A stretch of DNA of 64,000 nt from Patescibacteria group bacterium (GTDB taxonomy: Bacteria; Patescibacteriota; Microgenomatia; Levybacterales; UBA12049): assembly GCA_038064195.1 (NCBI GenBank), contig JBBTTO010000002.1, forward strand, positions 76,981 through 140,980, written 5' to 3'. Numbering within the stretch: the first letter of the stretch is position 1; each line of letters opens with the position of its first letter. Under the pieces are notes generated by a model. The model worked only from the letters and a program-made list of their open reading frames with translations. It did not search any database and was not told the origin of the DNA. The position numbers were made by a program, and so were the translations under genes. Positions 35,375 through 59,415 of this stretch are shown one piece after another.

Positions 35375-38300
35375 TTAGAGCCCCCAAACAATTTTTGCAC
35401 ATTCCCAGTACCCCCAGCCACCGCCCAGGTTTTTTAAGTGATAGTTCACGGCGTTACTCACCTGTGTTTTCCAGTTGACATCGCCCCTGTCATATTGTCC
35501 ATTTAACCCAACCCCTTCACCAAAAGGCGATTCTTGTCCATTGACAAAGCGTGAGCCCATTTGGAAGAGTCCGTAAGCGCTTCCATTCACCGCAACGGAA
35601 ACGTTGTTGGGGTCAAAACCTGGCGCCTCACAGGCAGAGATGCCGATCCAATAGCCAACTCCCGCCGGGTCGAGTTGCTTAAGAAGATCAACCATAGCCT
35701 TGGGCACATTACTCCAATGCCTCCCATTAAAGTCATAGGATATACGTTGAGACTGAGCCAGTTCACAGTCCGGGTCGCCAAAATTATTGCCGTCATGCTG
35801 GCCTCCATTCAAAACATAAGCACCACTACAGTTTGAGGTGTTCGGAGGAGGATTTGAGCCGATGTTTATGGTGCCGGATGTGTCAGAGCTAGAGTCATCG
35901 GAGGTGTTTCCGCCTATTGTATTATCTCCACCAACTCCTCCGATGACGTCCGCGCTTGCCGGTTGACTGGTGAAAGCGAAGTCTTTCTTAATCGGGAGGA
36001 TTTTAATTTGAAAGGTTATGGGAGAAAAAGACGCCTTCCCCGTAGAAATACCGGGCGGATTCGGGTCAGACGATGAGCTGCCTGTGTATCGGTCGGCTAT
36101 TGCTTTGGCGCGATTTGAGAAATTCTGCATATTATCTCCATAATAACTCCCCCAACTCCTCATGGTTGATGCCCAGTTGTCTTTAGCAGCTATATCACCG
36201 GCTACTTCCCGAGCCATTGCGATCGCTCCCAGCTCTTTATCCATGAGGAGAATAGCAATTGCTTGTTGGGCAGTGGCATTGCCCTGGCTTACCTCTGAGG
36301 CTAATTGCCGAACAGATTTGCTTGGAAAGACTGATGGATTTCGAATAAGTCCATTAGAAGCGGCAATTACTCCCTGTCCTACCTGTTGTGTTTTTTGAGC
36401 ATTATTTGAAGTGTTGGCGCCATAAGCTTCATCAAAGTCCTCGCCCAGATGTCCTACTGCTTGAGATACTTGCATACCGTAACCAACCTGCCAACCCCCT
36501 GAGTAAAAGCCGCCTGCGCAGCCGGCATTGATGTCATGGCTTCTGTCCTGACAGTTCCAAAAATAGGGATTATCACCAATACCCTCTATGGCGCCGGTCC
36601 AAATAACAGAAAGAAAAGGATCGACATACCTAGCCCCTCTTGTTTTGCCGATAAGATAGGCTTGATGCCTCGCGACGCGTGCCCCTAAGTCATTAAGATA
36701 ATGTATTGTAGTAGTTGAATACTGGGTATCCGATGTCCCTGGTGAGGGAAGATAGTAAGGAGCCTGTGTGTAGGTTGAAAAGACAATTTTTTGTGTAGAG
36801 GTTCCCCTTACGCCCTTTTCCGGAGTCGGAGTCGGAGTCGGAGTCGGAGTAAGGGTAGGGGTTGGCGTTGTCCCCAGGGTACATTTAGTAAACTCGGCTT
36901 GGGAGGTGTTCTGGTTTTCTTTAACTGACCACTCAACGAGAGTTACTCTACCTTGTCCGTCTTTTGTTAGATGACAGAGCCCTGTCGCACTGACAAAGGC
37001 AGCCTCTGAGGGGATGATGGGGTAGGTGACGCGGATATCGTCTGCCTGTCCATCGTAGGACACGTGGATCTGGTAAGTAATAATGTGTTTTGTCAGTTCG
37101 GCTATCAGTTTCTTGAGCTGCTCAGGGCTATATCCATTCAGTCCAAGTACTCGTGGTGTATCTTTTATCCCAAGAACTGATTGTCCTGATTGAGCAATGA
37201 CGGTTCCTAAGCTGCCCAGGACAGGTCCGCTAGGAGAAGAAGGAGCATCTACTTGATTAGCACACTCTTGGGCTTGCGCATCACCTTGGCAATCCGGTGG
37301 TGGGCTATCTACTGTCGTTTGAGCAGTCTCAAGTTTGATGTTCGCGTCTCCACCCTCGCCTGGCTTAACGAGCAGAACGACGACGAGTAAAATAATCGCA
37401 GCTATCCCCATAGCTGCCAAAACATAAGGATTAGCTAACAGAGGCGCGGCTCGGGCTAAGGTGGCAATACCTCTTGCTGCTTGTGCTGCACCGCGTGCTC
37501 CTTGGGCAGCTCCTCTTACTCCACTACCTCCACCCCCAAGTCTGGGTATGCGTGGGAGCAGCCTACTACCTAGTCGCCCGCCTACTCGTTGGGGAGAGGG
37601 GCGCATCGGCCTTTCGCCTGCAGGTGATGGTTCAGAAGGTGCCCGTGGTGTCTCAGGCGCTTCTCCTTGAGTCGTCCTCTCGCTTGGCCGACGGTCTTCG
37701 CGTAATCGTCTGCGTCGTCTGTCTTCTTCCTCGTCTTCTTCATTATTGCTTTCCTCTTCGATCTCATAGCCTAGTGTGGCTGGGAGGGGCATAGGTCTTA
37801 GAGGTGTTATATGAGAGGTAGTAGACTTAATATCTTGCGCTTTCTGATCGAAAGCAGCGAACTTGCTGTTGGAGTTACCTGCGAGTGCAGGGCGATTATC
37901 TCCTTGAGAAGGAGTATTGGTGGCGTTGGCTTGTATTTCCTGCATGTTTTGTGCTGTCTTTGCATGCTGTTCAAGCTGAGCTGCTTTAGCTTTGATGTCT
38001 TCTGGCGCAATTGGAGCAGGTTGAGTAGGATGCTGGGATGCTTCGAGTTCTTTTTTTGCTTGCTCTGCAAAAACTGGTTGGGCAGGAGTTTCTGGTTGAG
38101 CGCTATGAGAGATAGTGTGCTCCTCCGCTGTCGGGCTTGTTTGGTTGATTTTACTGGTATAGTCAAGGACTATTTGTTGAATCTTGGCATCCTCAGAGAT
38201 AGGGCCATAGAGCCAGATTTCAGAATCGTCGATTGCCGGCCGGTTACGGTTGGTGATGATCGGGTTGAATAAGCGTCTGTCCTTCTCGTCTTTTGTGATT

Positions 38301-38491
38301 GACGCATAGATCTCCTGCCATTGTGGCTCGGTGATTTTTTTTAAGTTAACCCCGTTGAACTCTTTTCTTTTCTTAAGAAGGTTTTTAACCAAGCTCCATG
38401 TCTGTGAGACTTCATAGGCAAAGCCCGGGTTGTTTCGTAGCTCTTCAAACATCTCGTCTGAGGATAGCTTGGTGGTGTAGCTTGTCGCCAT
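35375..38491 (-). CDS. Giant (1038 aa) bitopic membrane protein: cytoplasmic Pro/Arg/Gly-rich N-region, one TM helix, a (TP)n linker and an extracytoplasmic C-terminal lysozyme/lytic-transglycosylase-like domain; candidate VirB1-like peptidoglycan hydrolase of the T4SS-like locus
   Basis: The TM helix is LLANPYVLAAMGIAAIILLVVVLLV and the linker is TPTPTLTPTPTPTPTP. The C-terminus SAYGLFQM...VNGQESPFGEG resembles SLT/lysozyme-like GLxQ motifs. It sits immediately upstream of virB4. Confidence 0.45.
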   Translation of the reverse strand: MATSYTTKLSSDEMFEELRNNPGFAYEVSQTWSLVKNLLKKRKEFNGVNLKKITEPQWQEIYASITKDEKDRRLFNPIITNRNRPAIDDSEIWLYGPISEDAKIQQIVLDYTSKINQTSPTAEEHTISHSAQPETPAQPVFAEQAKKELEASQHPTQPAPIAPEDIKAKAAQLEQHAKTAQNMQEIQANATNTPSQGDNRPALAGNSNSKFAAFDQKAQDIKSTTSHITPLRPMPLPATLGYEIEEESNNEEDEEEDRRRRRLREDRRPSERTTQGEAPETPRAPSEPSPAGERPMRPSPQRVGGRLGSRLLPRIPRLGGGGSGVRGAAQGARGAAQAARGIATLARAAPLLANPYVLAAMGIAAIILLVVVLLVKPGEGGDANIKLETAQTTVDSPPPDCQGDAQAQECANQVDAPSSPSGPVLGSLGTVIAQSGQSVLGIKDTPRVLGLNGYSPEQLKKLIAELTKHIITYQIHVSYDGQADDIRVTYPIIPSEAAFVSATGLCHLTKDGQGRVTLVEWSVKENQNTSQAEFTKCTLGTTPTPTLTPTPTPTPTPEKGVRGTSTQKIVFSTYTQAPYYLPSPGTSDTQYSTTTIHYLNDLGARVARHQAYLIGKTRGARYVDPFLSVIWTGAIEGIGDNPYFWNCQDRSHDINAGCAGGFYSGGWQVGYGMQVSQAVGHLGEDFDEAYGANTSNNAQKTQQVGQGVIAASNGLIRNPSVFPSKSVRQLASEVSQGNATAQQAIAILLMDKELGAIAMAREVAGDIAAKDNWASTMRSWGSYYGDNMQNFSNRAKAIADRYTGSSSSDPNPPGISTGKASFSPITFQIKILPIKKDFAFTSQPASADVIGGVGGDNTIGGNTSDDSSSDTSGTINIGSNPPPNTSNCSGAYVLNGGQHDGNNFGDPDCELAQSQRISYDFNGRHWSNVPKAMVDLLKQLDPAGVGYWIGISACEAPGFDPNNVSVAVNGSAYGLFQMGSRFVNGQESPFGEGVGLNGQYDRGDVNWKTQVSNAVNYHLKNLGGGWGYWECAKIVWGL
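36821..36850. repeat. Hexanucleotide microsatellite (ggagtc)4-5 encoding the (TP)n linker
   Basis: The repeat is read directly from the sequence. It stays in-frame because the unit is 6 bp. Confidence 0.8.
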
Positions 38492-40506: not shown

Positions 40507-41166
40507 TTAAGCAGGCTTGACTAACGGTGTATTAATATCGGAATCAGCTTGCGATCCCTGGATCGGACCGTCATTAAAGACATCATAAAACAGTTTAATG
40601 AGTTCTTCTTTGCCCAGTATTTTTGAGGAGATCGCCAGCTTGAGGAGCTGTTGATTGACCGAGTCAGCTTTACCGAGAAGTGACTTTTGGGCTGACTGGA
40701 AGAACGCGTCTTTTTGGTGGAGGTCTTTGCTGATTGATTGTTTGACGCCGCTTAATCCCGCTTCAAGGGCAGTATAAGGGATCGCCACATAGAAGGTCTT
40801 ATTCAAAACGACATTGACTTTGACCATTTCCCGCACGAATTCACGGTAAAGCCTGATATGTTGGGCGAGGAGCTCGTTTTTGGTCTCCCTTTCCTCCTCT
40901 TCAAGCTCTTTTATATAGGAGGAGATATCAATGCGCTTATTGCGGATAATAATCTGAATAGGGAAGGTCAGGGAGTTAAGAAGTGCCGCGTAAGCATAAA
41001 TCTTAGCGTCCTGTTCTTTTTTTGAGAGCAGTGCGAAGTTGCTGGCTGTAATTTCAATGACCAAACAGGCATTTCCGCCCTCAAGCAGAACGACGTTATC
41101 AATAATATCAATGATCTCAGTGAATTTTTGGGTAGACGCCTGACCTTTGTGAGCTGAATTTTTCAC
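40507..41166 (-). CDS. Hypothetical soluble protein translationally coupled to virB4 (possible T4SS accessory)
   Basis: The ORF is 219 aa and its stop abuts the virB4 start. Confidence 0.4.
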   Translation of the reverse strand: MKNSAHKGQASTQKFTEIIDIIDNVVLLEGGNACLVIEITASNFALLSKKEQDAKIYAYAALLNSLTFPIQIIIRNKRIDISSYIKELEEEERETKNELLAQHIRLYREFVREMVKVNVVLNKTFYVAIPYTALEAGLSGVKQSISKDLHQKDAFFQSAQKSLLGKADSVNQQLLKLAISSKILGKEELIKLFYDVFNDGPIQGSQADSDINTPLVKPA

Positions 41167-42377
41167 GCGAACAGCTCCTTTCGTAATGCTTCCCGCGCGT
41201 CATGCGAGATGACTTCAATCGGGAGCATAATCTCCCCCTTGGCTTCAACCAGGACAGTCTCAAACTGATGAATCCCCTTAGGGTCTTCAAAACTCATGGT
41301 GTAGGCGCCATTGGCGAGTTTAGTAGCGGAGGCAAAGTGACCAAGCCCGTTGGTTTTAAAAGCGCGAACCGGGTTGTCGTCTTTATCTTTGAGCTCAACG
41401 AGTATATTTGGCAACACATTACCCCGGGCGTCTCTCACAATTCCCAGGACCACATTGGGGACATCCGGGATAGAGGGGAGTCCGAGGCTACTTGCTTTAT
41501 CAGTCGGAACAATTCTGACGTTTTGTGATGAGGCAAGAGGTTGATCAGGCACAGCTTGAGGTGTTGGCTGCTGTGGTTTGGTAGTTTGCTCTTTAAGTTT
41601 TAAGAGCTCCTGTTCGAGTTGTTGCTTTTGAGCCATGACATCACTGAGTTGTTTTTCAAGATCAGTCACGTGGGTATGTGTTTGGACGACAGGTTTATGC
41701 GCCTGCTCTAGCTGTTGTTCTTGCTGCATTGCCTCACTGAGTTCACGTTTGATTGCCTCAGCTTCTGCTTCTAATTCATGTTCCGCATCTAGGGGCGAGT
41801 GCATCATTTTTATACGCATAGCCTCATCGCTTGAGAGAGTATGTCCGATAGGGCCGGTATCTTCACTCAGCGTCAGCAGGCCCGGTTTGGCATTGGGGTC
41901 AAAAAGCGCAGTCATAAAGAAATCTTCCTTATCATCTAATTTGCTATGTGTTGAGCGGGTGAGTTGGGAGAGCATTTGCTTGAGCTGAACTTGTCTTGTC
42001 TCCTCAAGGGCAGTCACGCTTCCTTTCCTGTCTTTTTCCGGATGAGCGGGAAGCTTTTGGACACTAATAAGTGAGATAGCTAAATGACCGCCCGCCTGCT
42101 GGTAGAGATACTGCGTGGGTGCGAAGAGATCCTTAAAGAAATTGGCAATCATCAGGTCCATGGGGCGGCCTTCAATCGGCAAAAAAGCCAGAGCGGCTCC
42201 CATACCGATAAAGAAAGGGATAGTCAGTATTTTGACAAGGACAAAAATAGGCGCGTAGTAAAAAATAACCGCGATGATACTGCCTGTTGCCAGGAAGGCA
42301 AATTGTTTGACGGTCATGTTCCCGATCAGCTTGAACTGAAATCCGGTAACATCTTGTGGTATAGGATGGTTGTCCAT
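41163..42377 (-). CDS. Membrane protein: two N-terminal TM helices (VirB3-like topology), a Q/E-rich coiled coil and a C-terminal beta-sandwich (carboxypeptidase-regulatory-like) domain
   Basis: The TM pair lies at residues ~25-70. The coiled coil is EQQLEQAHK...QQLEQELLKLKEQ, followed by a C-terminal ~110-aa beta-rich domain. Confidence 0.45.
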   Translation of the reverse strand: MDNHPIPQDVTGFQFKLIGNMTVKQFAFLATGSIIAVIFYYAPIFVLVKILTIPFFIGMGAALAFLPIEGRPMDLMIANFFKDLFAPTQYLYQQAGGHLAISLISVQKLPAHPEKDRKGSVTALEETRQVQLKQMLSQLTRSTHSKLDDKEDFFMTALFDPNAKPGLLTLSEDTGPIGHTLSSDEAMRIKMMHSPLDAEHELEAEAEAIKRELSEAMQQEQQLEQAHKPVVQTHTHVTDLEKQLSDVMAQKQQLEQELLKLKEQTTKPQQPTPQAVPDQPLASSQNVRIVPTDKASSLGLPSIPDVPNVVLGIVRDARGNVLPNILVELKDKDDNPVRAFKTNGLGHFASATKLANGAYTMSFEDPKGIHQFETVLVEAKGEIMLPIEVISHDAREALRKELFA

Positions 42378-42570: not shown

Positions 42571-42999
42571 GTGAAAAGTCGCGCTCCTTTAGATTCAGAA
42601 GGAAGTCTTTTTAACTTGACTTTTATTGACAAATCAGGGCACAATGAGAGCATGGACCAGATTACGCCTGAATATAAAGAACAGGTTCAGGGGCAGATTT
42701 TGAGCATTATGAGCGCGGCGCTTGAGGCAAATACTCTCAAGACAGATCAAACGCCTGTCATTGCCGGTTTTGTGAGAGAAAAAATTGAAGCAGTCCAAAC
42801 CCACGTTCAGTTAGTTGAATTCCTTGCAGAGCTTGCGCAAAAGTGGCCGATTTTTGCATCGCTTGGTAATATGGAGATGGGTCGCGCAATTGAGGCACAC
42901 AAGGGTGAATTCACCCATGGTGTCATAGATAAAGTCAAGTCAGGCGATATAGATGGAGCTCTTAAAATGGCTCAGGGGTTGACTCCCCATGCACAATAA
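42571..42999 (+). CDS. Hypothetical protein
   Basis: A 142-aa ORF whose end overlaps the next ORF by 11 nt. Confidence 0.35.
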   Translation: MKSRAPLDSEGSLFNLTFIDKSGHNESMDQITPEYKEQVQGQILSIMSAALEANTLKTDQTPVIAGFVREKIEAVQTHVQLVEFLAELAQKWPIFASLGNMEMGRAIEAHKGEFTHGVIDKVKSGDIDGALKMAQGLTPHAQ

Positions 43000-45040
43000 T
43001 ATGGCTAGCACAACAGATCAACTCTATGGTGAACAGGGTAAAGAGACCGTGGCACGGGCGGCGTTTTCTGGTTCGGGTCGGGTTCATAGTCCAAGCGAGC
43101 GTATGGCACAGGATCTGCGCCGACGGCGGGAGGCCCAAGAACAGCCATCACACATCGTAGCAGATCTTGAGATCAAGCCTGTTTCCTCATCCCAGGTAGC
43201 CGGAGCTATTGAAAAAACAATTGGAGGGAAGTGGGTGGATGTCAAAGATTCTTCAGGTGCTATAGTTGGCAGAAAAAAAGAGCGTATTTCAGGCTCAGTC
43301 GAAGAGACGCGTTTTAAGGATGCAAGCAAAGCAGCTGAGTTCGTCCAGGAATTCCTCAAAAATAACTATGCCAATGTCCTCACCAGGCGTGATCGGGTAA
43401 CGCCTGTCTACAAAGCAAAAGATCCGGTTACCGGTAGGGAGACGCCTGTATTCCCTGACCAATTCATCGAGGCCTACAGAAAAAAAACCTTAGCAGCAGT
43501 AGAGGTGATCTGGCCGGATGCCAAGAAAGCCATGTCTGGCATGAGTGATCAGGCCAAGGAAAAAATGATGGATCGTATGCTCTCAGATCCTGCTTTTGCC
43601 AAGCATGTGCAGGCAAAGCTGCAGGAGGTCGTCGAGAGTACCCAGGAGGGGAAAGCTCTCCCACAAGAGCTTATTGATCGAGTGAGTAGTGCTAAGCTTG
43701 ATCACGATACTAAGGCGAAAGAGGTTGAGTGGACAGAGGCTGATTTGGAGGCAAAAAAAGAGGAATTCAAAAAGGAGTTCACAGATAAAGGTTCTGGGTC
43801 AATGGGGAGAGAGTATGATGCCATGCCAAGTATGGCATCATTGGAAGCAGATCTTGTTTCACATGACGACGATGTGCGAAAAAAGATGCGTGAGTTGGCC
43901 GATCTGAATAGGCAGTACGCGACAGCAGATAGGGCTAAGAATGCAGCTGAGGTAGCTAGGATTAGTCCATTGATAGGTACGAAAGAGGGGGAGATTGACG
44001 ACGCTAAGGATAGGAAGAAAGAAATAGAGCATAAGATTGCGCGTAGAAAAGAGATTGAGGATCGTCGAGCAGCTCTTGAGACAAGCGTTAGAGAGCTTGA
44101 GCGGAGTCTAGCCAAGAAGCAAATTGAGAGGGATCAGGCTCAAAATACGTATTATCTGACTCTTGCCAGTAAAAATGAGGCAGAGGAAGATCTTGCCAGG
44201 GGTGAAAAATCTTTTGTGTCGAAGCTGAACAATGTTACGACGGAGGCTGTGCGGGAATACTTGAAGGGTGAGATAGGTAACTATGAACAGACACGGGACA
44301 CGATCATCACAGAGCACGGGGATGATGCTCTGGTTAAAGGCCTGCAGGATCGCTGGAATAAGAAAGGTAAGCGTAATGAGTTCAACAAAGACACCATCAA
44401 TAGTGACTACAAGCTCTTTATCAATCAAGGGCCTAACGCTATTGTTCGTGCGACTTTGAGGGAAGGCGGGATGAGTGATGCTGAGATTGATGCCAAGTTG
44501 GCATCATACCCTGACTTCAAAAAGCGGGCTGAGTCAGAGGTCATAGAGCGTCTTTTGACCAGAAGACTCCAGACCGGGAAGATCTCTGAGGGGGAGGCGC
44601 GGCGTATTGTAGATATGCCAGGCAGCGAGGATGTTATTACGACCGCGCTTGAGAACAGAGCTAAATACGATGGGACGTATGAGGAATTAAAAAAGAAGGG
44701 CTTACTGGGTGGTGAGTTCATGCGTAAGCTACGTGCCTTACCCCACAATCGTATCGTGCAAATCCTCATGCTGATTTTCGGACTGGGAGGGTTGTTAGCT
44801 GTCGATGCTCTGGGTGGATTTGGTGTGGCAACTGCCGCAGGGGCAAAAATTGCAACAGGTGCTGGCTACGCAGCACATATAGGAGGAGTAGCAGCTGATA
44901 AGGCAGCACCTTTTGTGGGTGATGCTCTCGATAAGGCCGGAGCAGCAGTGAGTTATGCAGGTGATAAAGGCGGAGATGCTCTTAGCTATGCCGGAGATAA
45001 GCTAAGTGCGGGAGCCGACGCAGCAGATAAATATCGGTAA
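42989..45040 (+). CDS. Large coiled-coil protein with a C-terminal membrane/Gly-Ala-rich repetitive tail
   Basis: A charged heptad-rich body ends in ILMLIFGLGGLLAV and GDKGGDALSYAGDK repeats. Confidence 0.45.
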   Translation: MHNNMASTTDQLYGEQGKETVARAAFSGSGRVHSPSERMAQDLRRRREAQEQPSHIVADLEIKPVSSSQVAGAIEKTIGGKWVDVKDSSGAIVGRKKERISGSVEETRFKDASKAAEFVQEFLKNNYANVLTRRDRVTPVYKAKDPVTGRETPVFPDQFIEAYRKKTLAAVEVIWPDAKKAMSGMSDQAKEKMMDRMLSDPAFAKHVQAKLQEVVESTQEGKALPQELIDRVSSAKLDHDTKAKEVEWTEADLEAKKEEFKKEFTDKGSGSMGREYDAMPSMASLEADLVSHDDDVRKKMRELADLNRQYATADRAKNAAEVARISPLIGTKEGEIDDAKDRKKEIEHKIARRKEIEDRRAALETSVRELERSLAKKQIERDQAQNTYYLTLASKNEAEEDLARGEKSFVSKLNNVTTEAVREYLKGEIGNYEQTRDTIITEHGDDALVKGLQDRWNKKGKRNEFNKDTINSDYKLFINQGPNAIVRATLREGGMSDAEIDAKLASYPDFKKRAESEVIERLLTRRLQTGKISEGEARRIVDMPGSEDVITTALENRAKYDGTYEELKKKGLLGGEFMRKLRALPHNRIVQILMLIFGLGGLLAVDALGGFGVATAAGAKIATGAGYAAHIGGVAADKAAPFVGDALDKAGAAVSYAGDKGGDALSYAGDKLSAGADAADKYR

Positions 45041-45079
45041 AGTAATGGACCAACCCCAATAGAAGATTTAATTTAGAGG

Positions 45080-45427
45080 TTAAGAAGTTGGTGCGGGGCA
45101 GGTGTCAAAGCCGAAATTCTGGATACATTTGATGCCGATGATATTGGTGATGAAATAGAAAAGCACTATTGATGTCAGGACAATGATGAGGCCGATGAGA
45201 GCATAGGTCAGGATTTGGCGGGCTTCCTGGACTTGTTTGGTATCACCGCGTGAGACGATAAGTCTGATAGCCGCGTAAAGAATCAACGCTAGAGCTACTA
45301 TTCCGACAAAATAAAACGCCCAGTGGATGATTACTTGTAGAAAAGGCCCAATACACTTAAGTTGTGGTATAACACCGATTTTTTTACCAGTTGAATCAAA
45401 AGCATCTGCTGCACATGACCAGTTCAT
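45080..45427 (-). CDS. Small pilin-like protein (two hydrophobic helices separated by a short polar GDTKQVQEAR loop; VirB2/TrbC-like topology)
   Basis: It shares the TM - G(G)D/NxxKVxxAR - TM module with the three neighbouring paralogs. Confidence 0.45.
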   Translation of the reverse strand: MNWSCAADAFDSTGKKIGVIPQLKCIGPFLQVIIHWAFYFVGIVALALILYAAIRLIVSRGDTKQVQEARQILTYALIGLIIVLTSIVLFYFITNIIGIKCIQNFGFDTCPAPTS

Positions 45428-45473
45428 ATATTTACGTTAGCAAAGAAAGTAAGCAAGCACAATAGAGAAGAAG

Positions 45474-45884
45474 CTATTGAAGGAGTGAGGGCAAGGTAAA
45501 TGATCCAATGTCATTCCCGGTAAGGAGTTTAAAGACAAAGTTGATGACAAAGAATGATAAGAAGACGACTACGAGTCCGATAATTGCACCAACAATAGTG
45601 TTGCGAGCAGCCTCAACCTTCGTCTTATCACCACCAGCTGTAATCCATTTAAATCCACCAATAATGAGGAAAATTAACGCTGCAGCTGCACCGAGAAGAA
45701 GTAAAAGATTGAGGATTCTACTGAGCAGAGTTTGAGGGTCTGCTGAACTCGTTTTACAGAGACTATCAAATCCAGCCCCAGCAGGGCATAATTTTACAGT
45801 ACTGTCTGCAAAAGCGAGAGTGGCTACTGAAAGATAAAGAGAGGTTGCGGATACAGTAGCGATTAATTTTTGGGCAGATTTCAT
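45474..45884 (-). CDS. Pilin-like secreted protein (signal peptide, Cys pair, TM-GGDKTKVEAAR-TM module)
   Basis: IIGGFKWITAGGDKTKVEAARNTIVGAIIGLVVV is nearly identical to the motif in 45984-46361. Confidence 0.5.
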   Translation of the reverse strand: MKSAQKLIATVSATSLYLSVATLAFADSTVKLCPAGAGFDSLCKTSSADPQTLLSRILNLLLLLGAAAALIFLIIGGFKWITAGGDKTKVEAARNTIVGAIIGLVVVFLSFFVINFVFKLLTGNDIGSFTLPSLLQ

Positions 45885-45983
45885 AAATGTATTTAGTAAC
45901 TCTCTATCTATTTAGTCATATCTATTTTTACTTGTCAAGACCCATTTTCAAGCTGGAATTGTAAGAATATGGCTGAGGTATTA

Positions 45984-46361
45984 TTAACAAGGACTAGTAT
46001 TAGGTGATGAACAGTCCGGAGGATTTACGAGCATCGGGAAATTAAGAGAGCCTCCTGTGATCAGCTGGCCGACGAAGCCAATAATAAGGAAAGATAAAAG
46101 GGCTAATACTAGACCGACTATTGCATAGGTGAGTGTCCCACGCGCTGATTGAACTTTGGTCTTGTCACCGCCGGCTGTAATCCACTTGATGCCAGAGATG
46201 ATAATAAAGATGAGTGCTAAAACGAAGATAAAGAATAGGGCTACCTGAACTGCACGTTCTGCAATAATAATAAATATAGGTAGTCCACCTGTAGGTATCC
46301 CCTCGGGAACAGCTATTTTCTGGTTATCAATTGCGAGAGCGAGTAAGTGCTGCATAAGCAT
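45984..46361 (-). CDS. Pilin-like protein paralog (TM-GGDKTKVQSAR-TM)
   Basis: IISGIKWITAGGDKTKVQSARGTLTYAIVGLVLALL is present. Confidence 0.5.
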   Translation of the reverse strand: MLMQHLLALAIDNQKIAVPEGIPTGGLPIFIIIAERAVQVALFFIFVLALIFIIISGIKWITAGGDKTKVQSARGTLTYAIVGLVLALLSFLIIGFVGQLITGGSLNFPMLVNPPDCSSPNTSPC

Positions 46362-46373
46362 AGTGTATAGGAA

Positions 46374-46751
46374 TTAGTGCTCAGTGTGTAGTAGGCGCAT
46401 TTTTCGGACCAGTGAATTGAGCATGCGCAGTACTTCCTCAAGTAATGGAGTTATCTTTTCAAACTGTTCTTTAGATATATAGGTAAGCTCGTGACAAATG
46501 ATCAGCTGTGTCTCTAGCTCTAAAGCTGACCCATATGCTATCGCGTAAAATTGCGCGAACTCCCTAGATGATTTTCGGCCATATCCTTCGGCAATATTTG
46601 AGGGTATAGATACTGCAGCCCGTCGCATTTGCGAGACTAGACTATACATTTCATGATTGGGAAACCTTGATGTGATTTGGTAGATAGCCTTTACAAGCAA
46701 TATAGATTTTTGCCATACAATAAGATCCTTATAATTATGAATCTCACTCAT
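46374..46751 (-). CDS. Four-helix-bundle protein (family often encoded in 23S rRNA intervening sequences; TIGR02436-like)
   Basis: The 125-aa protein contains LIVWQKS...SIPSNIAEGYGR...ELETQLII, matching this family. Confidence 0.65.
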   Translation of the reverse strand: MSEIHNYKDLIVWQKSILLVKAIYQITSRFPNHEMYSLVSQMRRAAVSIPSNIAEGYGRKSSREFAQFYAIAYGSALELETQLIICHELTYISKEQFEKITPLLEEVLRMLNSLVRKMRLLHTEH

Positions 46752-46788
46752 CTTTGTGGTTTCTACACACTAATAACTACACACTTGC

Positions 46789-47958
46789 CTACTTAGTCAG
46801 TCCCGGGAGGTTGAGGAGATCAACTCCTATTACTTCCAGAATAATGATTGAGAGAACCAAAAACAAGAGGCCGACAAAGACAGAGGTGAGGCGTTCCCTG
46901 GCCTCTTTGACTTTCTCAGGATTGCCTTGAGAGGTCATGAGTTGATAGCCGCTGCGGATGATGAGAAGGAGGGCTATCCCGCCTGAGATACTCAGGAGGA
47001 TTGCAAAAAGCTGCCCGATAAAGCTAAAGGAGTCTGTATTAAGAGGTCCTATCGCACTCCAGATAGAAGTACAACCTTCGTTGGTGTTAAGTGTTTGAGC
47101 GCAAGGAGGAGGTGGGGGAAGAGGAGTTGGCGTAGGAAGACTCTTAGCTTGGTTAATCCAGATAGTAATTGGCTCAAGATATTGGTCATTGTCTCCATAA
47201 AGCACAATAGAGGTTGTCCCCTTACTAAAATCCTTTGGAAGAGTAAATATTACGCTACCACATGCATCCGTGTCGCATTTGGCTGTAGCGATTGCAGGTT
47301 CACCAAGAGCAGTTAAAACCAGATATTCTTTACTCGATGCGCCAGTAAGATGGATGCCGATGTCTTCTCCTGGTTGGGCAGGGTTATCTACCGCATTCGT
47401 CCTCCCATTCGTATTAAAAGCATCGATCATTTTATGATCAGTTGAGCCGCCACTCCCTTTGGTGACCACCGTAAATTTGTCTGCGGCAGGCGTGTCAGTG
47501 CCTTCCGAAGGTATTTTGTACACGCAGACGTGTAAGGTATTACTTCCATCATTTATATTATCCCCAATCTCTTGAGTACTTACCTGCCCTGAAAATGTAT
47601 TATTTGAACAAGAGGTATTGGTGAAATGCTGCGATGTTTTGTCGGGATCCATAATACATGTTCCATCGTCTGCTATACCAACTGTTTCTTGTGCAATAAT
47701 TATAGGTGCGGTGGTCTCGCAGGTCATGTTAGGGCCAAGAAGATTAATTACGTATGCCTCCGACTTTGGAATATTACCTAGCGAGATGTTGATAGGGTTG
47801 GGGTAGGTTACCGTCTGGTCGACTGAGAGGTTGCCCTGCATGCCTCCAACTGCTTCAGCAGTAAAGACCACCAGTGGATAAGGAATGATTATGCCTACTA
47901 AAAAGATGAGGGAATAGGAAAAACTTAGCAGGGATTTTTTCATACTTGTAATTATCAT
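46789..47958 (-). CDS. Pilin-like protein with a large N-terminal extracellular domain and Pro-rich linker (candidate tip or adhesin pilin)
   Basis: A signal peptide and ~280-aa N-domain are followed by a PTPTPLPPPPP linker and the shared C-terminal TM-QGNPEKVKEAR-TM module. Confidence 0.45.
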   Translation of the reverse strand: MIITSMKKSLLSFSYSLIFLVGIIIPYPLVVFTAEAVGGMQGNLSVDQTVTYPNPINISLGNIPKSEAYVINLLGPNMTCETTAPIIIAQETVGIADDGTCIMDPDKTSQHFTNTSCSNNTFSGQVSTQEIGDNINDGSNTLHVCVYKIPSEGTDTPAADKFTVVTKGSGGSTDHKMIDAFNTNGRTNAVDNPAQPGEDIGIHLTGASSKEYLVLTALGEPAIATAKCDTDACGSVIFTLPKDFSKGTTSIVLYGDNDQYLEPITIWINQAKSLPTPTPLPPPPPCAQTLNTNEGCTSIWSAIGPLNTDSFSFIGQLFAILLSISGGIALLLIIRSGYQLMTSQGNPEKVKEARERLTSVFVGLLFLVLSIIILEVIGVDLLNLPGLTK

Positions 47959-47976
47959 ACGAGGTTAGAGGATTGT

Positions 47977-49344
47977 TTGCAATTTCTAGGTTTGGTGATG
48001 AAAGTATATTACAATAGTAGTATGGAATCGAAATACTTTGAGTCTCTTTATCCAGTAGAGGCGCGGGATCAGGAGCTCGAAAAAATTGTCGGGTATATCC
48101 GCGAAGGGGTCTCCTCTCAGGTAGTCGGATTGCCCGGAGTCGGGCGGAGTACCATACTCGGGCTTTTGGCATACAATCGTGAGATTCGTCTTCGGCATTT
48201 TCCCAAGTATCACGGAAGTATTCATTTCGTCATGGTCAATTTTTCAGAGGTCAAGACTCGCCCATACCCAGAAGTTGTCAAATTCCTCTTCCTGTGCCTG
48301 AGTAATTCACTGCGCGAGCGGGAAATGCCTGAGGAGTATGAACATGTAGATACGTTATTCAAAGAGGCTTTGAATTATAATGATGAGTTGGTGATCAGTC
48401 AGGGCCTCAAAAATGCTATCGAGTATCTGGCGGTTGAGAGGAAATTGACGCTGGTATTATTGTTTGATCGTTTTGATGAGTATATCCCTCAGGTATCCAT
48501 GGAGTTTTTTACGCTTCTCCGCAGCCTTCGGGATCGGGCCAAATATCGTTTTTCAGTGGTCTTTTCACTCGACCGTCCCCTTGAGGAGACAGTAGAGCCC
48601 TCCTTAGTGGCAGATTTCAGCGACTTTATCAGCGGACATGTGATCTATCTTCCGCTTCTTGATGAGCCAAGTAGCTCCTTCAGGCTATCCTATCTGGAGA
48701 AATTAACTGCCAAGACATTGTCTGTTGAGCAAAAAAAAGAGGTCCTAAGACTGACTGCCGGCCATATTCGACTCCTCAAAGTCGCAGCTGAGGCGATGCT
48801 AGCTGAAGGTACGATACCGGCTGATATTGAGGCATTTTTACTTTCGCAAAAGACTGTCCATGGAGCGCTCATGAGCATCTGGAAGAGTCTGACTCCAGGT
48901 GATCAAGTCGATTTAAGTAAGGGTGAGATCCATGACCACCAGGGGGAGAGTTATTTACAAAAGGTGGGTCTTTTGGAGGGGGACCGGATTACGATTCCGC
49001 TTTTCGCCAAAGCGCTTGCGGACAAGCTTTTTCAGGAAAATGAAGCCAAAATAGTTTATGACGAGGCGGCAAATATTATCAAAAAAGGTGATCTAGTCCT
49101 CTCAGACAGCCTGACCAAGGCTGAGTTTCGTCTCCTTCGCTATTTGCTCCAGCACCCACAGGAGATCGTGGATCGTGAGACGGTGATCAGTGAAGTTTGG
49201 CAGGAGGCAAAGACTACACTTGGTGTGACTGAGCAGGCTGTCGACCAGCTGATTTTTCGTCTCAGGCATAAGATTGAAGAAGATCCCAATAATTCAAGGC
49301 ATTTGTTAACTATAAAAGGAAGAGGAATAAAATTTATGCCTTGA
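47977..49344 (+). CDS. Putative regulator: P-loop NTPase-like domain (Walker A with Arg in place of Lys, GLPGVGRST) plus a C-terminal OmpR/PhoB-type winged helix; paralog of 17227-18537
   Basis: The C-terminus VISEVWQEAKTTLGVTEQAVDQLIFRLRHKIEE...LLTIKGRGIKF matches the Trans_reg_C family. The N-domain resembles AAA/ORC-like ATPases. Confidence 0.55.
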   Translation: MQFLGLVMKVYYNSSMESKYFESLYPVEARDQELEKIVGYIREGVSSQVVGLPGVGRSTILGLLAYNREIRLRHFPKYHGSIHFVMVNFSEVKTRPYPEVVKFLFLCLSNSLREREMPEEYEHVDTLFKEALNYNDELVISQGLKNAIEYLAVERKLTLVLLFDRFDEYIPQVSMEFFTLLRSLRDRAKYRFSVVFSLDRPLEETVEPSLVADFSDFISGHVIYLPLLDEPSSSFRLSYLEKLTAKTLSVEQKKEVLRLTAGHIRLLKVAAEAMLAEGTIPADIEAFLLSQKTVHGALMSIWKSLTPGDQVDLSKGEIHDHQGESYLQKVGLLEGDRITIPLFAKALADKLFQENEAKIVYDEAANIIKKGDLVLSDSLTKAEFRLLRYLLQHPQEIVDRETVISEVWQEAKTTLGVTEQAVDQLIFRLRHKIEEDPNNSRHLLTIKGRGIKFMP

Positions 49345-49389: not shown

Positions 49390-49755
49390 ATGACCCAAGA
49401 ACAAATTACAAAACTTTATGATTTAGAAGAACGAACATTTGTGTTTGCGAAAGACACGAGATCGTTTGTTAAAAAGCTCCCCAAAACAGTAGGTAACATC
49501 GAAGATGGCTCACAACTCATCCGTTCTTCTGGCTCGGTAGGCGCTAATTATATCGAGGCAAATGAAGCATTTAGCAAAAAGGACTTTCTAATGAGAACAA
49601 AGATTTGTAGAAAAGAAGCAAAGGAGAGCAGGTTTTGGCTACGTCTGGTAGATACAAAAGACGATCCTCTACTTGAAAAGGAAAGAATAAGGTTAATAGC
49701 TGAGGCAACAGAATTGATGAATATTTTCGGTGCGATTATTAGAAAATCTGAATAA
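49390..49755 (+). CDS. Four-helix-bundle protein (23S IVS protein family), second copy
   Basis: The 121-aa protein contains GSVGANYIEANEAFSKKDF, typical of the family. Confidence 0.65.
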   Translation: MTQEQITKLYDLEERTFVFAKDTRSFVKKLPKTVGNIEDGSQLIRSSGSVGANYIEANEAFSKKDFLMRTKICRKEAKESRFWLRLVDTKDDPLLEKERIRLIAEATELMNIFGAIIRKSE

Positions 49756-49939: not shown

Positions 49940-52900
49940 ATGAATGAACGTTTGACTTCGGAGGCTGCTACCACGTATGCTAAAGATGGAGAATTGTTTA
50001 TGGCCTCAGAAAACACCAAAGACCAAGAGAATCAGCCCTGGGATCCAATCGAGACTCCTTTAACTATAGCTAACGTCATGGATATCCCGGTTAAGACGAG
50101 AGAACAGCTTGAGGCAAAAGCTGCCTGGAGTCAGTTATATGGCGGGAAGATGCCAAATGATCCTACCGAGCGGCAGATGCTAGGGGATTCGATTCGAGAT
50201 GGGAAGCTCCCTGATGCCTCAATGCGCTCGGCAGGCAGACAGGACTCCGCAACCCAGCGTGAGCGCGAGGCACGTCAAAATACTGATCGGGATCCACAAC
50301 GAGTCCAAGAAGGGAAAAGAACAAAAAGCAATAGAAAAGAGCAACTGCACCGCCCTGAGGATGACGGCCCACAAATTACTCGGGATATGACCGAGGAGCA
50401 ACAACAGGCCGAAATTGCCCGTTGGCAAGCCAGCATGGACACTCTACTGAGGCAGGAGATGGCCAATCCCAACAAAGATAGGACATATTTTGAAGTTATG
50501 GGGGATCGGTTCAACCAGCGAAAAAGTTGGTCAGAGGACCCAAGTACGGCAGATTCGCTTGAGCGGGAGTTCCAAGCGCAAAACAAACGGTTCAGTGATC
50601 GAGAGGCAGCAATTGAGTTCCTTGTGAAGCAAGGCTTTCGCCGAGAGGAAATTACTGATGAGCAGGTGGATTTGGCTATCGACCAAATCCAGGAATCCCT
50701 CACTATCCCCAGCAGAATGGAGAGGATAAAGGAGCAGATTCTCAAAACGGATGACCTGAAAGTAGCCCGTAATCTGTTTGAGAGGCTGCGTAACTATGTG
50801 CGAGAGATCAATGATAGTAGTCAGGCGCCCGGTAGTAAGCTCCAGCTTAAAGATCAAACACGGACAACGTTGCAAAAAATAGCCAATCTTGGAGAAAGCG
50901 ATCTTGATACCCTCGAAAAAGTTAGGGCGCAGACGCAACGTATTCTGGCTGATGATCCGAAAGCAGGCTTAAATATCAAAAATTTCTTCTTTGAGGCTGA
51001 GACGGTTGATACAAAGAGGCGTGGTAGTAGAGGGGTACAAATCCGCTCGCTTGAGGAATTAGTCGAACTCATCGCTGAGTCCCAGGGAGGCAAGTTCTCT
51101 GCGGGCGGGGAATTTGAGATCATGAATGAGCGGGGCGAGATCCAGCTGCAGAATCTCGTTGCCTGGATTCGTCAAAGGATTTTAACCCTCCATGAAAATG
51201 AGCCAGATGATCCGATCAACACCTTTACCAATATCGCAGTTCCAACTTTTTTCCGTCAAATTAGTCTTAATGAAATGTTTTTGACACCAACCTACTTCCA
51301 GAAGAGAAAAATGGTAATTGAAGGTTCAGAAGAAAAGGGCAACCTTTCTATGCGTCAGGAAAGTGTTGATGATCAGCAGTATGAGAATTTTAAGATGAAC
51401 CTTCTCTATGAGTCATGGCTTTTTGGTGTCTCGCATAGTAATAATGCTGAGTATCGAGCAGTACGTGGGCAGGAAGAGCCTCTTTTTAACAAAATCGCCT
51501 CGCTCTATACCAAAAATCATTTCACCAAAGATCGCAATCGTTTCTTAAATATCTTCAGCCTTGCTAAAGTTGATAAAAGTGAATTTGATGCTGTAGGTAA
51601 AAAAGAAGAACAGGGGAGTGTTGGTAAGGCGATACAGAGAGGAGTCTTGGCTTACTATCACCTGTGGGAGTTAGTAGCTGAGAATAAAGTCAAAAGAGGT
51701 AGAGATGGTAAGCCTCAGAAAGGCAAGGATGGTAAGCCTATTTATGATCTAAGTCAAGGTGATATCACCAAAATAGAAAATAACAATTTCTATTCTACCT
51801 TGGGAGAGGATGGGACGAAGTATTTCTATCATTCAATTGTAGATCAACTCTTAACAGCCAAAGGCAAAATTGAGCTTGACTTTAAAGAGGCTTTAGGCGC
51901 TCTTGCAAGTGATCTGACACGTGGCGAGAGTGAGAAAGATCTCACGGATCTAGAGCTAGTCTTTAAGCATAAGAGAGATAAGTTCGATGCATTTATGACA
52001 ACACAGTTGGATATGAAGCCTGAGGATATAGCTAAATATGAGAGTAGCCCACGTGATTTCGCTACAGTTGTGATGGACAAAGTTTGGGCAATCAAACATA
52101 AAGACTTAAATATCTTTGATGATGTCAATAAGGAGCAGCGGATTATTAGCTTAGTCAATCATGCTGTTTCCTCAGCTATTGGAAGAAAAGAGGGGCTAGG
52201 TGTTCAGGACACAGAATACGCCGGAGAGTGGGCCTATACGATGCGAGACTGGACAGGGATAGCAGCACGTAATGATACCAGTGGTATTGGCTTTGATGCC
52301 TGGTCTAAGCTTATCAATTTCCAAGATTACAGAGGTCGTCAGGGGCGAGGAAGAAGTGGGGCTGGCAATATGTACAATTTTCCTGGATTTAAGCGTTTGG
52401 GGGCAACACTGCTTGATGGGTTGTTGGTACGTATTGATGGGGACGAGCGGAAAGATGAGAACAAGAAGTCTCTGATTAGCGTTTTGGAAGAATCCAATCG
52501 TAACAATACCAGGCTGAAGACTTTTGATTTTGATGGTGAGGCGATGAGACAGTTCTCGGCCAATCATATTAACAATGCCTTTAAAGTCTTTCAATTTATT
52601 CTTGAGAAGATGGAGACCAAGATGAACTCAATTGTCTCAATTGATAGAGCAGGAAGACCGGTCTTCAATCATGAAGCAGCTTTGCAGATCATGGATGGTC
52701 TTTGGCATGACCTCAGATACGCTTTTGATCAGCCCCGCTTTAATTTTGACACCACGGTTATTGAAGGCTGGGAAAATAGAACTGTCTATGATGCTAAAGG
52801 GAAGCCTGTTTTTGATGATGAGGGGAAGCTAGTCATGGAGCGTGTCAAGACCAATCAGTCGATGCGCCATCATATGTTCGGCGATGAAATGATAGAGCTG

Positions 52901-53299
52901 GGGCATAAAATGCATCATCGTGATATTACGAAGAATGCTTGGGGAAGGCAAATGGGGCGTTCGGCTTTTGCCTATTTGGTTGCTAAGGAAATATTTGCCC
53001 ATCGTCAATTTAATAGTGGGTATGTGAAATGGCCGGTTGAGCAGATAGAGTTGATTCAAGCTTTCTTCCACCATCAAGCATTAGAATTTGGTCAAAAAGG
53101 TGAACAGGATTATGATATGAAGATCTTTGCGGAGTTTTTCGATCATCATGAGTGGAAAGAGATTCTAGGTTTGGCTAAGTCGAGCTATCTGAGGATGTAT
53201 ACCGGAGAATATGCTGCGCAAGGAGCGGGTCTGGTTGGGGGAATGATAGGCAAGACAATTGGTGAGACTATCAAGCAGGTTGCAACGGTAGCTAAGTAG
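49940..53299 (+). CDS. Giant (1119 aa) hypothetical soluble protein with no P-loop and no recognisable catalytic motif; candidate T4SS-associated or effector protein
   Basis: A long uninterrupted ORF with coding-like composition, convergent on the VirB6-like gene. Confidence 0.45.
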   Translation: MNERLTSEAATTYAKDGELFMASENTKDQENQPWDPIETPLTIANVMDIPVKTREQLEAKAAWSQLYGGKMPNDPTERQMLGDSIRDGKLPDASMRSAGRQDSATQREREARQNTDRDPQRVQEGKRTKSNRKEQLHRPEDDGPQITRDMTEEQQQAEIARWQASMDTLLRQEMANPNKDRTYFEVMGDRFNQRKSWSEDPSTADSLEREFQAQNKRFSDREAAIEFLVKQGFRREEITDEQVDLAIDQIQESLTIPSRMERIKEQILKTDDLKVARNLFERLRNYVREINDSSQAPGSKLQLKDQTRTTLQKIANLGESDLDTLEKVRAQTQRILADDPKAGLNIKNFFFEAETVDTKRRGSRGVQIRSLEELVELIAESQGGKFSAGGEFEIMNERGEIQLQNLVAWIRQRILTLHENEPDDPINTFTNIAVPTFFRQISLNEMFLTPTYFQKRKMVIEGSEEKGNLSMRQESVDDQQYENFKMNLLYESWLFGVSHSNNAEYRAVRGQEEPLFNKIASLYTKNHFTKDRNRFLNIFSLAKVDKSEFDAVGKKEEQGSVGKAIQRGVLAYYHLWELVAENKVKRGRDGKPQKGKDGKPIYDLSQGDITKIENNNFYSTLGEDGTKYFYHSIVDQLLTAKGKIELDFKEALGALASDLTRGESEKDLTDLELVFKHKRDKFDAFMTTQLDMKPEDIAKYESSPRDFATVVMDKVWAIKHKDLNIFDDVNKEQRIISLVNHAVSSAIGRKEGLGVQDTEYAGEWAYTMRDWTGIAARNDTSGIGFDAWSKLINFQDYRGRQGRGRSGAGNMYNFPGFKRLGATLLDGLLVRIDGDERKDENKKSLISVLEESNRNNTRLKTFDFDGEAMRQFSANHINNAFKVFQFILEKMETKMNSIVSIDRAGRPVFNHEAALQIMDGLWHDLRYAFDQPRFNFDTTVIEGWENRTVYDAKGKPVFDDEGKLVMERVKTNQSMRHHMFGDEMIELGHKMHHRDITKNAWGRQMGRSAFAYLVAKEIFAHRQFNSGYVKWPVEQIELIQAFFHHQALEFGQKGEQDYDMKIFAEFFDHHEWKEILGLAKSSYLRMYTGEYAAQGAGLVGGMIGKTIGETIKQVATVAK

Positions 53300-56662: not shown

Positions 56663-56734
56663 GCCTCCGTAGTCTAATGGATAAAACAGGGGCTTCCGGA
56701 GCCTCAGCTGTGGGTCCGATTCCCGCCGGAGGCA
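56663..56734 (+). tRNA. tRNA-Arg (anticodon CCG by hand-fold)
   Basis: Acceptor gcctccg/cggaggc, anticodon stem ggggc/gcctc (one G-U) with loop ttCCGga, T-arm gtggg-tccgatt-cccgc. Confidence 0.6.
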
Positions 56735-56763
56735 CCGTGTCAAACGCGGCTTTAGCAAGATTT

Positions 56764-57192: not shown

Positions 57193-57199
57193 TAATTAA

Positions 57200-57255
57200 G
57201 GAGGAGTCGTCCACTAAAGGGACTATCCACCATTTTGAATTTATTTAACAATCAA
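57200..57255 (+). repeat. Conserved ~56-bp tRNA-Ser leader containing a partial copy of the tRNA 5' end (ggaggagtcg) plus tccactaaagggactatcc; second copy at 59257-59312
   Basis: ggaggagtcgtccactaaagggactatcc is identical at both loci. It is followed by AT-rich tttaacaat and then the real tRNA start ggaggagtcg. Confidence 0.55.
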
Positions 57256-57339: not shown

Positions 57340-57342
57340 CAT

Positions 57343-59136: not shown

Positions 59137-59256
59137 TAGCTCAGTATAGCAAGAAAGCTAAGGATCAGAGTTGATCAAGATCACAAGGGAATATTGATAA
59201 GTACTCAGAGCAAGTATGGCTTAGGTATGTTCTAGATGGTATAATTAACCACTCTT

Positions 59257-59404: not shown

Positions 59405-59415
59405 CAGTTTAGATA

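Follow-up and report, generated by a model that had tools for sequence, protein, structure and literature searches.

Putative type IV secretion pilins with a domain-extended, cassette-exchanging first member in a Patescibacteria chromosome

Described pilin systems and the array in the window

The T4SS (type IV secretion system) is among the few machines shown to be essential to the epibiotic life of a cultured Patescibacterium: in the available text of Wang et al. (2023; PMC10633639), transposon sequencing identifies a series of pilins and the T4SS, in the SEML1_0006-0019 region, as essential in Ca. Southlakia epibionticum. According to PMC11665869 and PMC10633639, the role of this machine is wholly unknown. 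With the Pfam families PF18895 (T4SS_pilin) and PF04956 (TrbC/VirB2), Quinonero-Coronel et al. (2025; PMC12102498) surveyed 3,035 Patescibacteria genomes, and the available text of that study describes T4SSs that often lie near dnaA and lack a relaxase, and reports that no adhesins were detected. In a 2025 review (PMC12857230), the existence of a pilus in these monoderms is termed an 'intriguing possibility'. Monoderm T4SSs have lately been proposed to form VirB2-like pili without a known tip protein: Gram-positive conjugative T4SSs have a VirB2-like protein too, PrgF of pCF10, which is essential for conjugation and was modelled as a pilus on a VirB6 pentamer, backed by mutagenesis and labelling and with no VirB5-like tip found (ter Beek et al. 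2025, bioRxiv 10.64898/2025.12.18.695078). Here, we analyze a 64-kb stretch of contig JBBTTO010000002.1 of a Patescibacteria group bacterium (the window), which carries an array of four pilin-like genes. One of them encodes a protein of 389 amino acids (aa), the long pilin, and the other three encode short pilins of 125, 136 and 115 aa.

We read the four genes as VirB2-type pilins of a chromosomal, monoderm-type (MPF-FATA-like) T4SS in a host related to Levyibacteriota, which would together build a pilus or conduit in which the host-binding subunit is exchangeable. The probability of this reading is estimated at roughly 0.6. That the proteins belong to PF18895 and their genes to a T4SS locus is, on its own, close to certain.

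A VirB2-like pilin array as such is already known in Patescibacteria, and the array in the window is another example. Like the published arrays, as far as their available descriptions go, it comprises PF18895/VirB2-like genes (2-11 per published array) that stand in tandem or with one non-pilin gene in between and that show low paralogue identity. It is likewise chromosomal, near virB4 and dnaA and, among the scanned open reading frames (ORFs), without a relaxase or coupling protein nearby. By contrast, the available descriptions present the pilins as small and make no mention of a conserved first gene with an N-terminal domain of 150-800 aa, and the fixed four-position order and the replacement of the N-terminal domain (N-domain) come from the present analysis. 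Neither a first pilin with a fused, cassette-exchanged domain nor the fixed order of four positions appears to have been described before.

The TrbC/VirB2/TraA pilins (T-pilus, F-pilus, R388) resemble the proteins of the window in several respects: a signal-peptide-like N-terminus in the canonical member, a short charged loop that joins two hydrophobic helices, a gene beside virB3, virB4 and virB6, and sub-threshold to significant PF04956 matches within the family. They differ in that the host of the window is a monoderm in which no outer-membrane core genes were seen, and in that the window has four fixed paralogues, one with a large N-terminal domain, instead of one major pilin. No fusion of a large N-terminal domain to a VirB2-type pilin was found in the literature searched, and we know of no large-domain fusion among the classical VirB2 pilins. 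PrgF of pCF10 and the pilin-like protein of the mycoplasma integrative and conjugative element Mbov_0395 (NF045849) share with the window a monoderm T4SS with a CD1110-family VirB4, PrgI and TrsD, as well as a small two-helix protein with a charged loop that is encoded near virB6. Unlike the window, those systems are conjugative with a relaxase and a type IV coupling protein (T4CP), usually have one functional VirB2-like gene and have no known tip protein. Identity with the 'Pam' pilus of the Candidate Phyla Radiation (CPR) was also considered and rejected: the available text on that pilus (10.64898/2026.03.03.709456) describes immunoglobulin-like donor-strand pilins and does not mention a T4SS, and the two are unrelated.

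Pilin family, topology and position-specific paralogues

All four genes were found at the positions where the first-pass annotation, made from the sequence without database searches, had placed them, and are encoded on the minus strand (Table 1). Their products share a C-terminal module in which a G-(G/N/D)-x-x-K-V-x-x-A-R loop connects two hydrophobic helices. A multiple alignment of the three short pilins with the C-terminal 91 residues of the 389-aa protein bears out the module with seven invariant residues (G61, V66, A69, R70, G79, L80 and S86). A hidden Markov model (HMM) of the module, built here and searched against the six-frame translation of the whole 64-kb window, recovers the four array stretches (E 1e-22 to 1e-30) and no fifth copy at E <= 10. 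Together with the PF18895 scores given below, this speaks against a pattern that arose by chance. The paralogues have diverged to 24-32% identity when the other three are compared to the 115-aa member. They stand in one array as had been claimed, but the array is not strictly tandem, since a PF05635 gene encoding a four-helix bundle splits the 389-aa from the 125-aa gene. In the NCBI records (MEK7605006.1-MEK7605010.1), only the 389-aa protein, which lies on a contig of 1.08 Mb, is named a pilin (MEK7605010.1, 'MAG: pilin [Patescibacteria group bacterium]'; MAG, metagenome-assembled genome). The three short proteins are deposited as hypothetical, and their pilin-profile scores are described as equal to or above that of the long pilin (PF18895 scores are listed in Table 1).

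In a whole-protein Pfam scan, each of the four proteins reaches at least the PF18895 gathering score of 26.6 bits, and the genes lie inside a T4SS locus, so that the earlier suggestion of T4SS pilins finds support. Short homologues, scanned singly, match PF18895 without exception (39/39). A proportion of them (17/39) also match PF04956 at E <= 0.01 (best 2.3e-7), while any family other than these two is matched by at most five. Within the window, the 136-aa pilin gives below-threshold matches to PF04956 (19.8 bits, E 9e-4) and to CagC (E 3e-3), and all four proteins have sub-threshold NCBIfam matches to NF045849 (16-30 bits against a cut-off of 40). Judged from these profiles, the link to TrbC/VirB2 appears remote but real, as a homology at family level without membership of PF04956. 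As the proteins pass PF18895, miss the PF04956 cut-off and match no solved pilin (see below), they are filed in the former family and not in the latter. A tblastn search of the 136-aa pilin against the 72,556 plasmids of PLSDB gave no match.

Hydropathy places two strong hydrophobic stretches on either side of the charged loop in each of the four proteins. The AlphaFold2 model of the 136-aa pilin predicts helices at residues 50-82 and 87-122 with a predicted local distance difference test (pLDDT) score above 90, and the model of the 389-aa protein, built with 44 homologues, predicts module helices at 310-342 and 347-381 (pLDDT 85-89). By sequence pattern, signal-peptide-like hydrophobic N-termini occur only in the 389-aa member (AEA before V) and the 136-aa member (AFA before D). 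The latter has a putative signal peptide at residues 1-26 (ending in LAFA before DST, by sequence pattern), Cys33 and Cys43 in its N-terminal tail and the hairpin at 50-122. For the 115-aa gene, an earlier start that would uncover a hidden signal peptide was rejected by eye, as an in-frame stop lies four codons 5' of the ATG. The number of Cys residues is even in all four proteins and every Cys falls within a segment predicted to be outside: eight in the N-domain and junction of the 389-aa protein, two in the C-terminal tail of the 125-aa protein (Cys117/Cys125), and Cys5/Cys25 in the N-terminal and Cys101/Cys110 in the C-terminal tail of the 115-aa protein. Hydropathy and Cys placement would fit the VirB2 arrangement, in which the loop is inside and both ends are outside.

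A scan with one genome per species yielded 79 loci, in which ORFs were called and searched with the module HMM; position counts are given over 80 loci. The informative organism labels among them read Levyibacteriota, Microgenomates or Patescibacteria, and many labels are evidently placeholders. In 75 of the 80 loci, which are mostly from Levyibacteriota, the array opens with a long gene (196-884 aa, median 406), and exactly one long gene occurs in 70. An order of long, ~111, ~136 and ~108 aa is found in 35 loci, a pattern that the window shares (389 aa, the bundle gene, 125, 136 and 115 aa). Module identity between species at positions 1-4 amounts to 0.63, 0.42, 0.54 and 0.46, respectively, of which the first value is inflated because the loci were retrieved via position-1 module patterns, an ascertainment effect that tells against our reading. 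Between positions, identity is 0.28-0.46 and it is lower even inside one genome, with the exception of position 2 (0.42 within the position versus 0.41-0.46 with position 3). Since identity within positions exceeds identity between them, the paralogues are old and position-specific, which suggests, as far as such comparisons reach, that each position may have its own role. Among close relatives, the correspondence is direct: the 125-aa pilin and the gene at position 2 of L001, the closest relative with a full locus, are 69% identical, and the 115-aa pilin has 72-79% identity with the genes that close the arrays of L001 and of a further relative, L005. Eight of the related loci (L024, L031, L033, L036, L039, L040, L053 and L059) contain one or more long pilin genes only, without an adjacent short-pilin array. 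In these same loci, a solitary pilin-module gene of ~97-100 aa lies upstream of the long pilin on the opposite strand, at a distance of about 5-9 kb, which suggests that the locus has a second layout in some lineages.

The long pilin and the exchange of its N-terminal domain

The 389-aa protein had been proposed to place a large secreted domain and a PTPTPLPPPPP linker ahead of the pilin module. Such an architecture was indeed found, with the linker at residues 274-285 and a domain of ~235 aa behind the signal-peptide-like N-terminus. It recurs in related proteins: out of 74 long pilins, 68 have a signal-peptide-like N-terminus, 54 a CxnC motif just before the module and 51 a Pro-rich stretch. 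The AlphaFold2 model predicts a beta-rich N-domain (blocks ~44-146 and ~200-266) at low confidence (pLDDT 40-70). A phmmer search of this domain against 1.84e9 representative proteins returned a single match (E 2.4e-5), which is itself a long pilin of 578 aa. No VirB5/TraC-like domain was detected in the 389-aa protein, whose sole Pfam match is PF18895.

Module and N-domain evolve in a decoupled manner. Homologues of the long pilin from a protein search (217-671 aa) align with no more than the C-terminal ~25% of the query, with 50-92% identity, and the module is conserved with a mean identity of 63% across species. N-domains, in turn, are related by BLASTP in 2.4% of the pairs (54/2211), and for 30 out of 67 the set contains no relative. 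Even in pairs with modules that are at least 90% identical, the N-domains are unrelated in 25 of 41 cases (116 long pilins, protein search). The comparison with L001 makes this plain. Genes around the array are closely similar in both loci (VirB4 92%, TrsD 98%, PrgI 87% and the regulator 87% identical), and the long pilins, with 492 aa in L001 versus 389 aa in the window, have modules that are 92% identical and N-domains that are unrelated. The DNA is 82% identical through the regulator and the first eight codons of the long pilin, shows no identity from 47933 to 47077, and is 85% identical again from the second junction Cys. These sharp junctions are the signature of cassette replacement and not of gradual divergence. 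A wholesale swap of the N-domain between close relatives is as expected of a host-recognition subunit.

Diversity-generating retroelements (DGRs) are common in CPR genomes. One may therefore ask whether a DGR generates the variability of the N-domain, given that the gene beside the long pilin (46374-46751) encodes a product with a bAvd-like match. That match is weak (35.7 bits, below the cut-off of 40) and the same bundle protein matches PF05635 far better (145.8 bits). Among the 43 window ORFs scanned, including all array neighbours, none contains a reverse-transcriptase domain. A template/variable repeat pair is absent at the pilin gene as well, the sole long direct repeat being a tgt fragment with mismatches that are not restricted to A. 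Relatives differ by whole-domain replacement of unequal length rather than by point hypermutation, and the bundle gene is missing at this position in most of them. A DGR as the source of N-domain variability is effectively refuted.

The PF05635 gene has a patchy distribution of its own. Next to the long pilin, it is present in L001 and absent in L003, another close relative, and L005 keeps only a remnant of ~140 nt (L005:532-727) in the spacer between the long pilin and pilin 2, which is homologous to the 3' end of the bundle gene in the window. In 6-9 of 76 loci, a homologue follows directly downstream of the long pilin. A second PF05635 gene, likewise weakly bAvd-like, lies inside the T4SS locus (49390-49755, plus strand), and the presence of both genes at these positions varies among close relatives, which suggests gain and loss as of a small mobile or decaying gene.

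In the mechanism that we propose, each protein would be inserted in the membrane as a helical hairpin with the short charged loop in the cytoplasm and both ends outside. The hairpins would be pulled out and polymerised on the VirB6/VirB3/VirB4 machine that is encoded on either side of the array. The product would be a pilus or a wall-spanning conduit, with its lumen lined by the G-G-D/N-x-x-K-V-x-x-A-R loop. The four genes would represent old paralogues at fixed positions, probably with distinct roles, rather than recent duplicates. The 136-aa protein, which appears the most canonical, is the likely candidate for the major subunit because of its predicted signal peptide and its best pilin-profile scores. 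The 389-aa protein would enter the filament via the same, unusually conserved module, and its Pro-rich linker and disulphide loop would display the exchangeable, predicted beta-rich domain of ~235 aa on the outside. It may act as a low-copy, first-in subunit at the tip that recognises the host cell, and as such would fill the place that VirB5 has in Gram-negative systems. Its conserved module, fixed first position, single copy in most loci, secretion signal, linker with disulphide loop and exchangeable domain together suggest a long pilin within the polymer that exposes a host-specific domain, and we give an exposed role in host recognition somewhat less than even odds. The tip location is the least certain part of the mechanism. 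Conjugative pili grow from the base with the pilin termini outward (10.64898/2025.12.18.695078), so a long pilin that is first in would end at the tip.

The alternative that a pilus or conduit is built with the long pilin elsewhere, either co-polymerised along the shaft or ending or anchoring the filament at its base, draws on the observation that both termini of solved conjugative pilins are on the outer surface (10.64898/2025.12.18.695078), which makes an N-terminal domain tolerable along the shaft. Moreover, neither the position nor the stoichiometry of the long pilin is fixed by any computation here. On the other hand, ~235 extra residues per subunit would be sterically demanding in a tightly packed helical filament, and a single long gene, in 70 of the 80 loci, stands against three or more short ones. 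In 75 of the 80 loci, the long gene heads the array, which fits a first-in subunit that would reach the tip as the filament grows from its base. We consider a shaft or base location rather unlikely.

Domain-extended minor pilins are found at the tips of type IV pili, as exemplified by CofB and TcpB. The likeness of the long pilin to these proteins and to the VirB5 tip protein would be one of role: a low-copy, first-assembled cap contacting the target cell in the case of VirB5, and a binding part grafted onto a pilin scaffold in the case of CofB/TcpB. There is no relation in sequence or fold; the Pfam scan of the long pilin detects neither a VirB5 nor a type IV pilin domain, and the scaffold in the window is a VirB2-type hairpin with the extra domain at the N-terminus. 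More tentatively, and with odds of clearly less than one in two, the long pilins may constitute an undescribed class of T4SS subunits that combine a VirB2-type hairpin with a cassette-exchangeable extracellular domain, are assembled first, locate to the tip of a monoderm T4SS pilus, recognise the host and substitute for VirB5, such that the N-domain repertoire would set the host cell to which each Levyibacteriota/Microgenomatia epibiont can attach or from which it can draw material. If true, the long pilin would be a candidate determinant of host specificity in uncultured bacteria and a handle for domain swaps, binders and host prediction by N-domain type. If it is merely a membrane-anchored protein, the locus is one further instance of a published gene array.

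Besides the ascertainment effect at position 1, several results weigh against a pilus with a host-binding subunit. None of the four proteins reaches the PF04956 gathering score (27.9 bits, with 19.8 bits as the best score), and the other three have no Pfam match to this family. A profile of the 39 short pilins searched against all PDB sequences gave no pilin match (best E 0.93), and Foldseek with the 136-aa AlphaFold2 model retrieved only generic helical hairpins from the PDB (best E 1.2). For both methods, a bare two-helix hairpin is too simple a fold to be discriminating. The 125-aa and 115-aa members have N-terminal tails of ~30 aa in place of a signal peptide, as judged from sequence and hydropathy. 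No fold or family could be recognised in the N-domain: its model is of low confidence and Foldseek with the 389-aa model retrieved nothing beyond generic beta-sandwich noise (best E 0.17, probability 0.08), so that the designation 'adhesin' is drawn only from location, secretion signal and variability. A promoter and terminator scan of 44900-48300 returned five promoter-like sites versus 6.7 expected from shuffled sequence, and since this is not above expectation, no claim on an operon or on relative expression is made. To our knowledge, no filament has been observed so far for this lineage.

The same results feed the alternative that the module is a two-helix membrane anchor and that the four proteins are accessory or surface proteins of the T4SS in the cytoplasmic membrane, the long one being tethered there, with no pilus at all. 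Unrelated N-domains of very many kinds precede the module, solved pilins show no similarity in the PDB profile and Foldseek searches, and a Patescibacteria T4SS pilus has not yet been seen and is called a possibility (PMC12857230). However, a mere anchor would need neither the conserved charged loop nor the conserved C-terminal IGVDLLxxPG tail, with a mean identity of 63% across species, and a 12-residue linker would probably leave the domain beneath the cell wall. The position of the module is fixed inside the VirB6...VirB4 locus, and homology to TrbC/VirB2 is backed by the 17 independent Pfam matches among the 39 short homologues. For PrgF-type VirB2-like proteins of monoderm T4SSs, extrusion from the membrane has experimental support (10.64898/2025.12.18.695078). 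The first-pass annotation had itself raised the possibility of a generic anchor without resemblance to any pilin profile. All four proteins pass PF18895 and, although the module occurs behind many unrelated N-domains, the protein that carries it is encoded at the head of a pilin array in the same locus in 75 of 80 loci, which argues against a generic anchor. We regard the anchor as improbable and retain VirB2-type pilins of a pilus or conduit as the preferred reading.

The secretion locus and other features of the window

The window covers the chromosomal origin region of a small-genome bacterium, with rnpA, yidC, dnaA and dnaN present and the minimum of the cumulative GC skew at 30-32 kb. The array is flanked upstream by VirB6 and downstream by PrgI/VirB3, TrsD and VirB4, the VirB4 gene being 4.6 kb away (Table 1). 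The 694-aa VirB6-like protein is the expected platform of pilin polymerisation. No relaxase or T4CP family turned up among the 43 ORFs scanned in the 64-kb window.

Table 1. Coordinates of the pilin array, the regions of the long pilin and the surrounding genes in the window.
Feature	Position	Strand	Evidence or remark
Long pilin, 389 aa, array position 1	46789-47958	minus	PF18895, 32.6 bits, residues 312-376
Long pilin, signal-peptide-like residues 1-36	47958-47851	minus	Ends in FTAEA before VGG
Long pilin, orphan beta-rich N-domain, residues 37-272	47850-47143	minus	Six Cys
Long pilin, Pro/Thr linker 274-285 and Cys286-x9-Cys296 loop	47142-47071	minus	
Long pilin, VirB2-like two-helix module, residues 297-389	47070-46789	minus	
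Intervening four-helix-bundle gene, 125 aa, non-pilin	46374-46751	minus	PF05635 23S_rRNA_IVP, 145.8 bits
Short pilin, 125 aa, array position 2	45984-46361	minus	PF18895, 28.0 bits
Short pilin, 136 aa, array position 3	45474-45884	minus	PF18895, 48.7 bits
Short pilin, 115 aa, array position 4	45080-45427	minus	PF18895, 28.5 bits
142-aa ORF and 683-aa coiled-coil protein with Gly/Ala-rich hydrophobic C-terminus	42571-45040	plus, convergent on array	
PrgI/VirB3-like, 404 aa, with CarboxypepD_reg-like beta-sandwich	41163-42377	minus	PF12666, 30.8 bits versus 27
TrsD-like, 219 aa, separate VirB4 N-terminal part	40507-41166	minus	VirB4_plasma N-terminal region E 1.5e-8, TrsD E 6e-4 (NCBIfam)
VirB4-like T4SS ATPase, 666 aa	38505-40505	minus	NF045971 CD1110 family, 395.3 bits versus 325; Pfam P-loop_TraG, 98.9 bits
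AAA-type ATPase with OmpR/PhoB-type winged-helix regulator domain, 455 aa	47977-49344	plus	Trans_reg_C, 64.9 bits; weak AAA_16
VirB6/TrbL-like polytopic membrane protein, 694 aa	53304-55388	minus	PF04610, 30.3 bits versus 25.9
dnaA	30654-32036		
dnaN	32291-33403		

Much of this layout recurs in relatives. L001, L003 and L005 share the order regulator, long pilin, short pilins, a convergent gene of ~650-690 aa, a gene of ~115 aa, PrgI, TrsD and VirB4. The 455-aa regulator is divergent from the array and a conserved neighbour: a homologue lies directly 5' of the long pilin in 41 of 76 long-pilin loci, of which 60 have at least 2 kb of upstream sequence. VirB6 is found upstream of the array in 43 loci, PrgI, TrsD and VirB4 downstream in 28-31 (PrgI in 30), and dnaN and dnaA downstream in 13-18.

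VirB4 is split in two genes, the TrsD-like piece being followed by the 666-aa ATPase. This pair is conserved, and the TrsD-like piece is 96-98% identical in close relatives. The PrgI/VirB3-like protein is, with 404 aa, much longer than the 91-position PrgI profile and carries a CarboxypepD_reg/SdrD_B-like beta-sandwich near its C-terminus, an architecture that is also present in L001, L003 and L005. The 683-aa coiled-coil protein is syntenic in these three relatives but only 48-60% identical, versus 87-98% for VirB4, TrsD and PrgI. Neither it nor the 142-aa product has a Pfam match. Large ORFs without a Pfam match comprise those of the 683-aa protein (42989-45040, plus), a 1038-aa protein (35375-38491, minus), a 1119-aa protein (49940-53299, plus), a 903-aa protein (59416-62127, minus) and a 575-aa protein (9836-11563, plus). 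For the first three, which flank the T4SS genes, PDB sequence searches gave nothing usable. These orphans may be fast-evolving T4SS parts or substrates.

The remainder of the window is housekeeping, including ruvABC, tgt, aminoacyl-tRNA synthetases and pgk. A direct repeat of 129 nt (76% identity) links 2902-3030 to 3957-4085. The latter copy is the 3' end of tgt (queuine tRNA-ribosyltransferase; gene 3897-5201), and the former, in the spacer after an HD-domain gene, looks like a leftover gene fragment. As their mismatches involve all bases, the two copies are not a template/variable pair of a DGR. A second repeat of 86 nt (84% identity; 57185-57270 and 59242-59327) extends over the upstream region and the 5' end of a pair of tRNA-Ser genes, 57256-57340 (GGA) and 59313-59405 (GCT), which bracket a P-type ATPase gene (57343-59136, minus). 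A NUDIX ORF (56677-57192) overlaps tRNA-Arg(CCG) at 56663-56736, and its true start is probably further downstream, as the Pfam match starts only at residue 38. Finally, a 436-aa protein encoded 30 kb away from the array (17227-18537, minus) has the same C-terminal Trans_reg_C winged-helix domain as the array regulator and is a possible paralogue of it.

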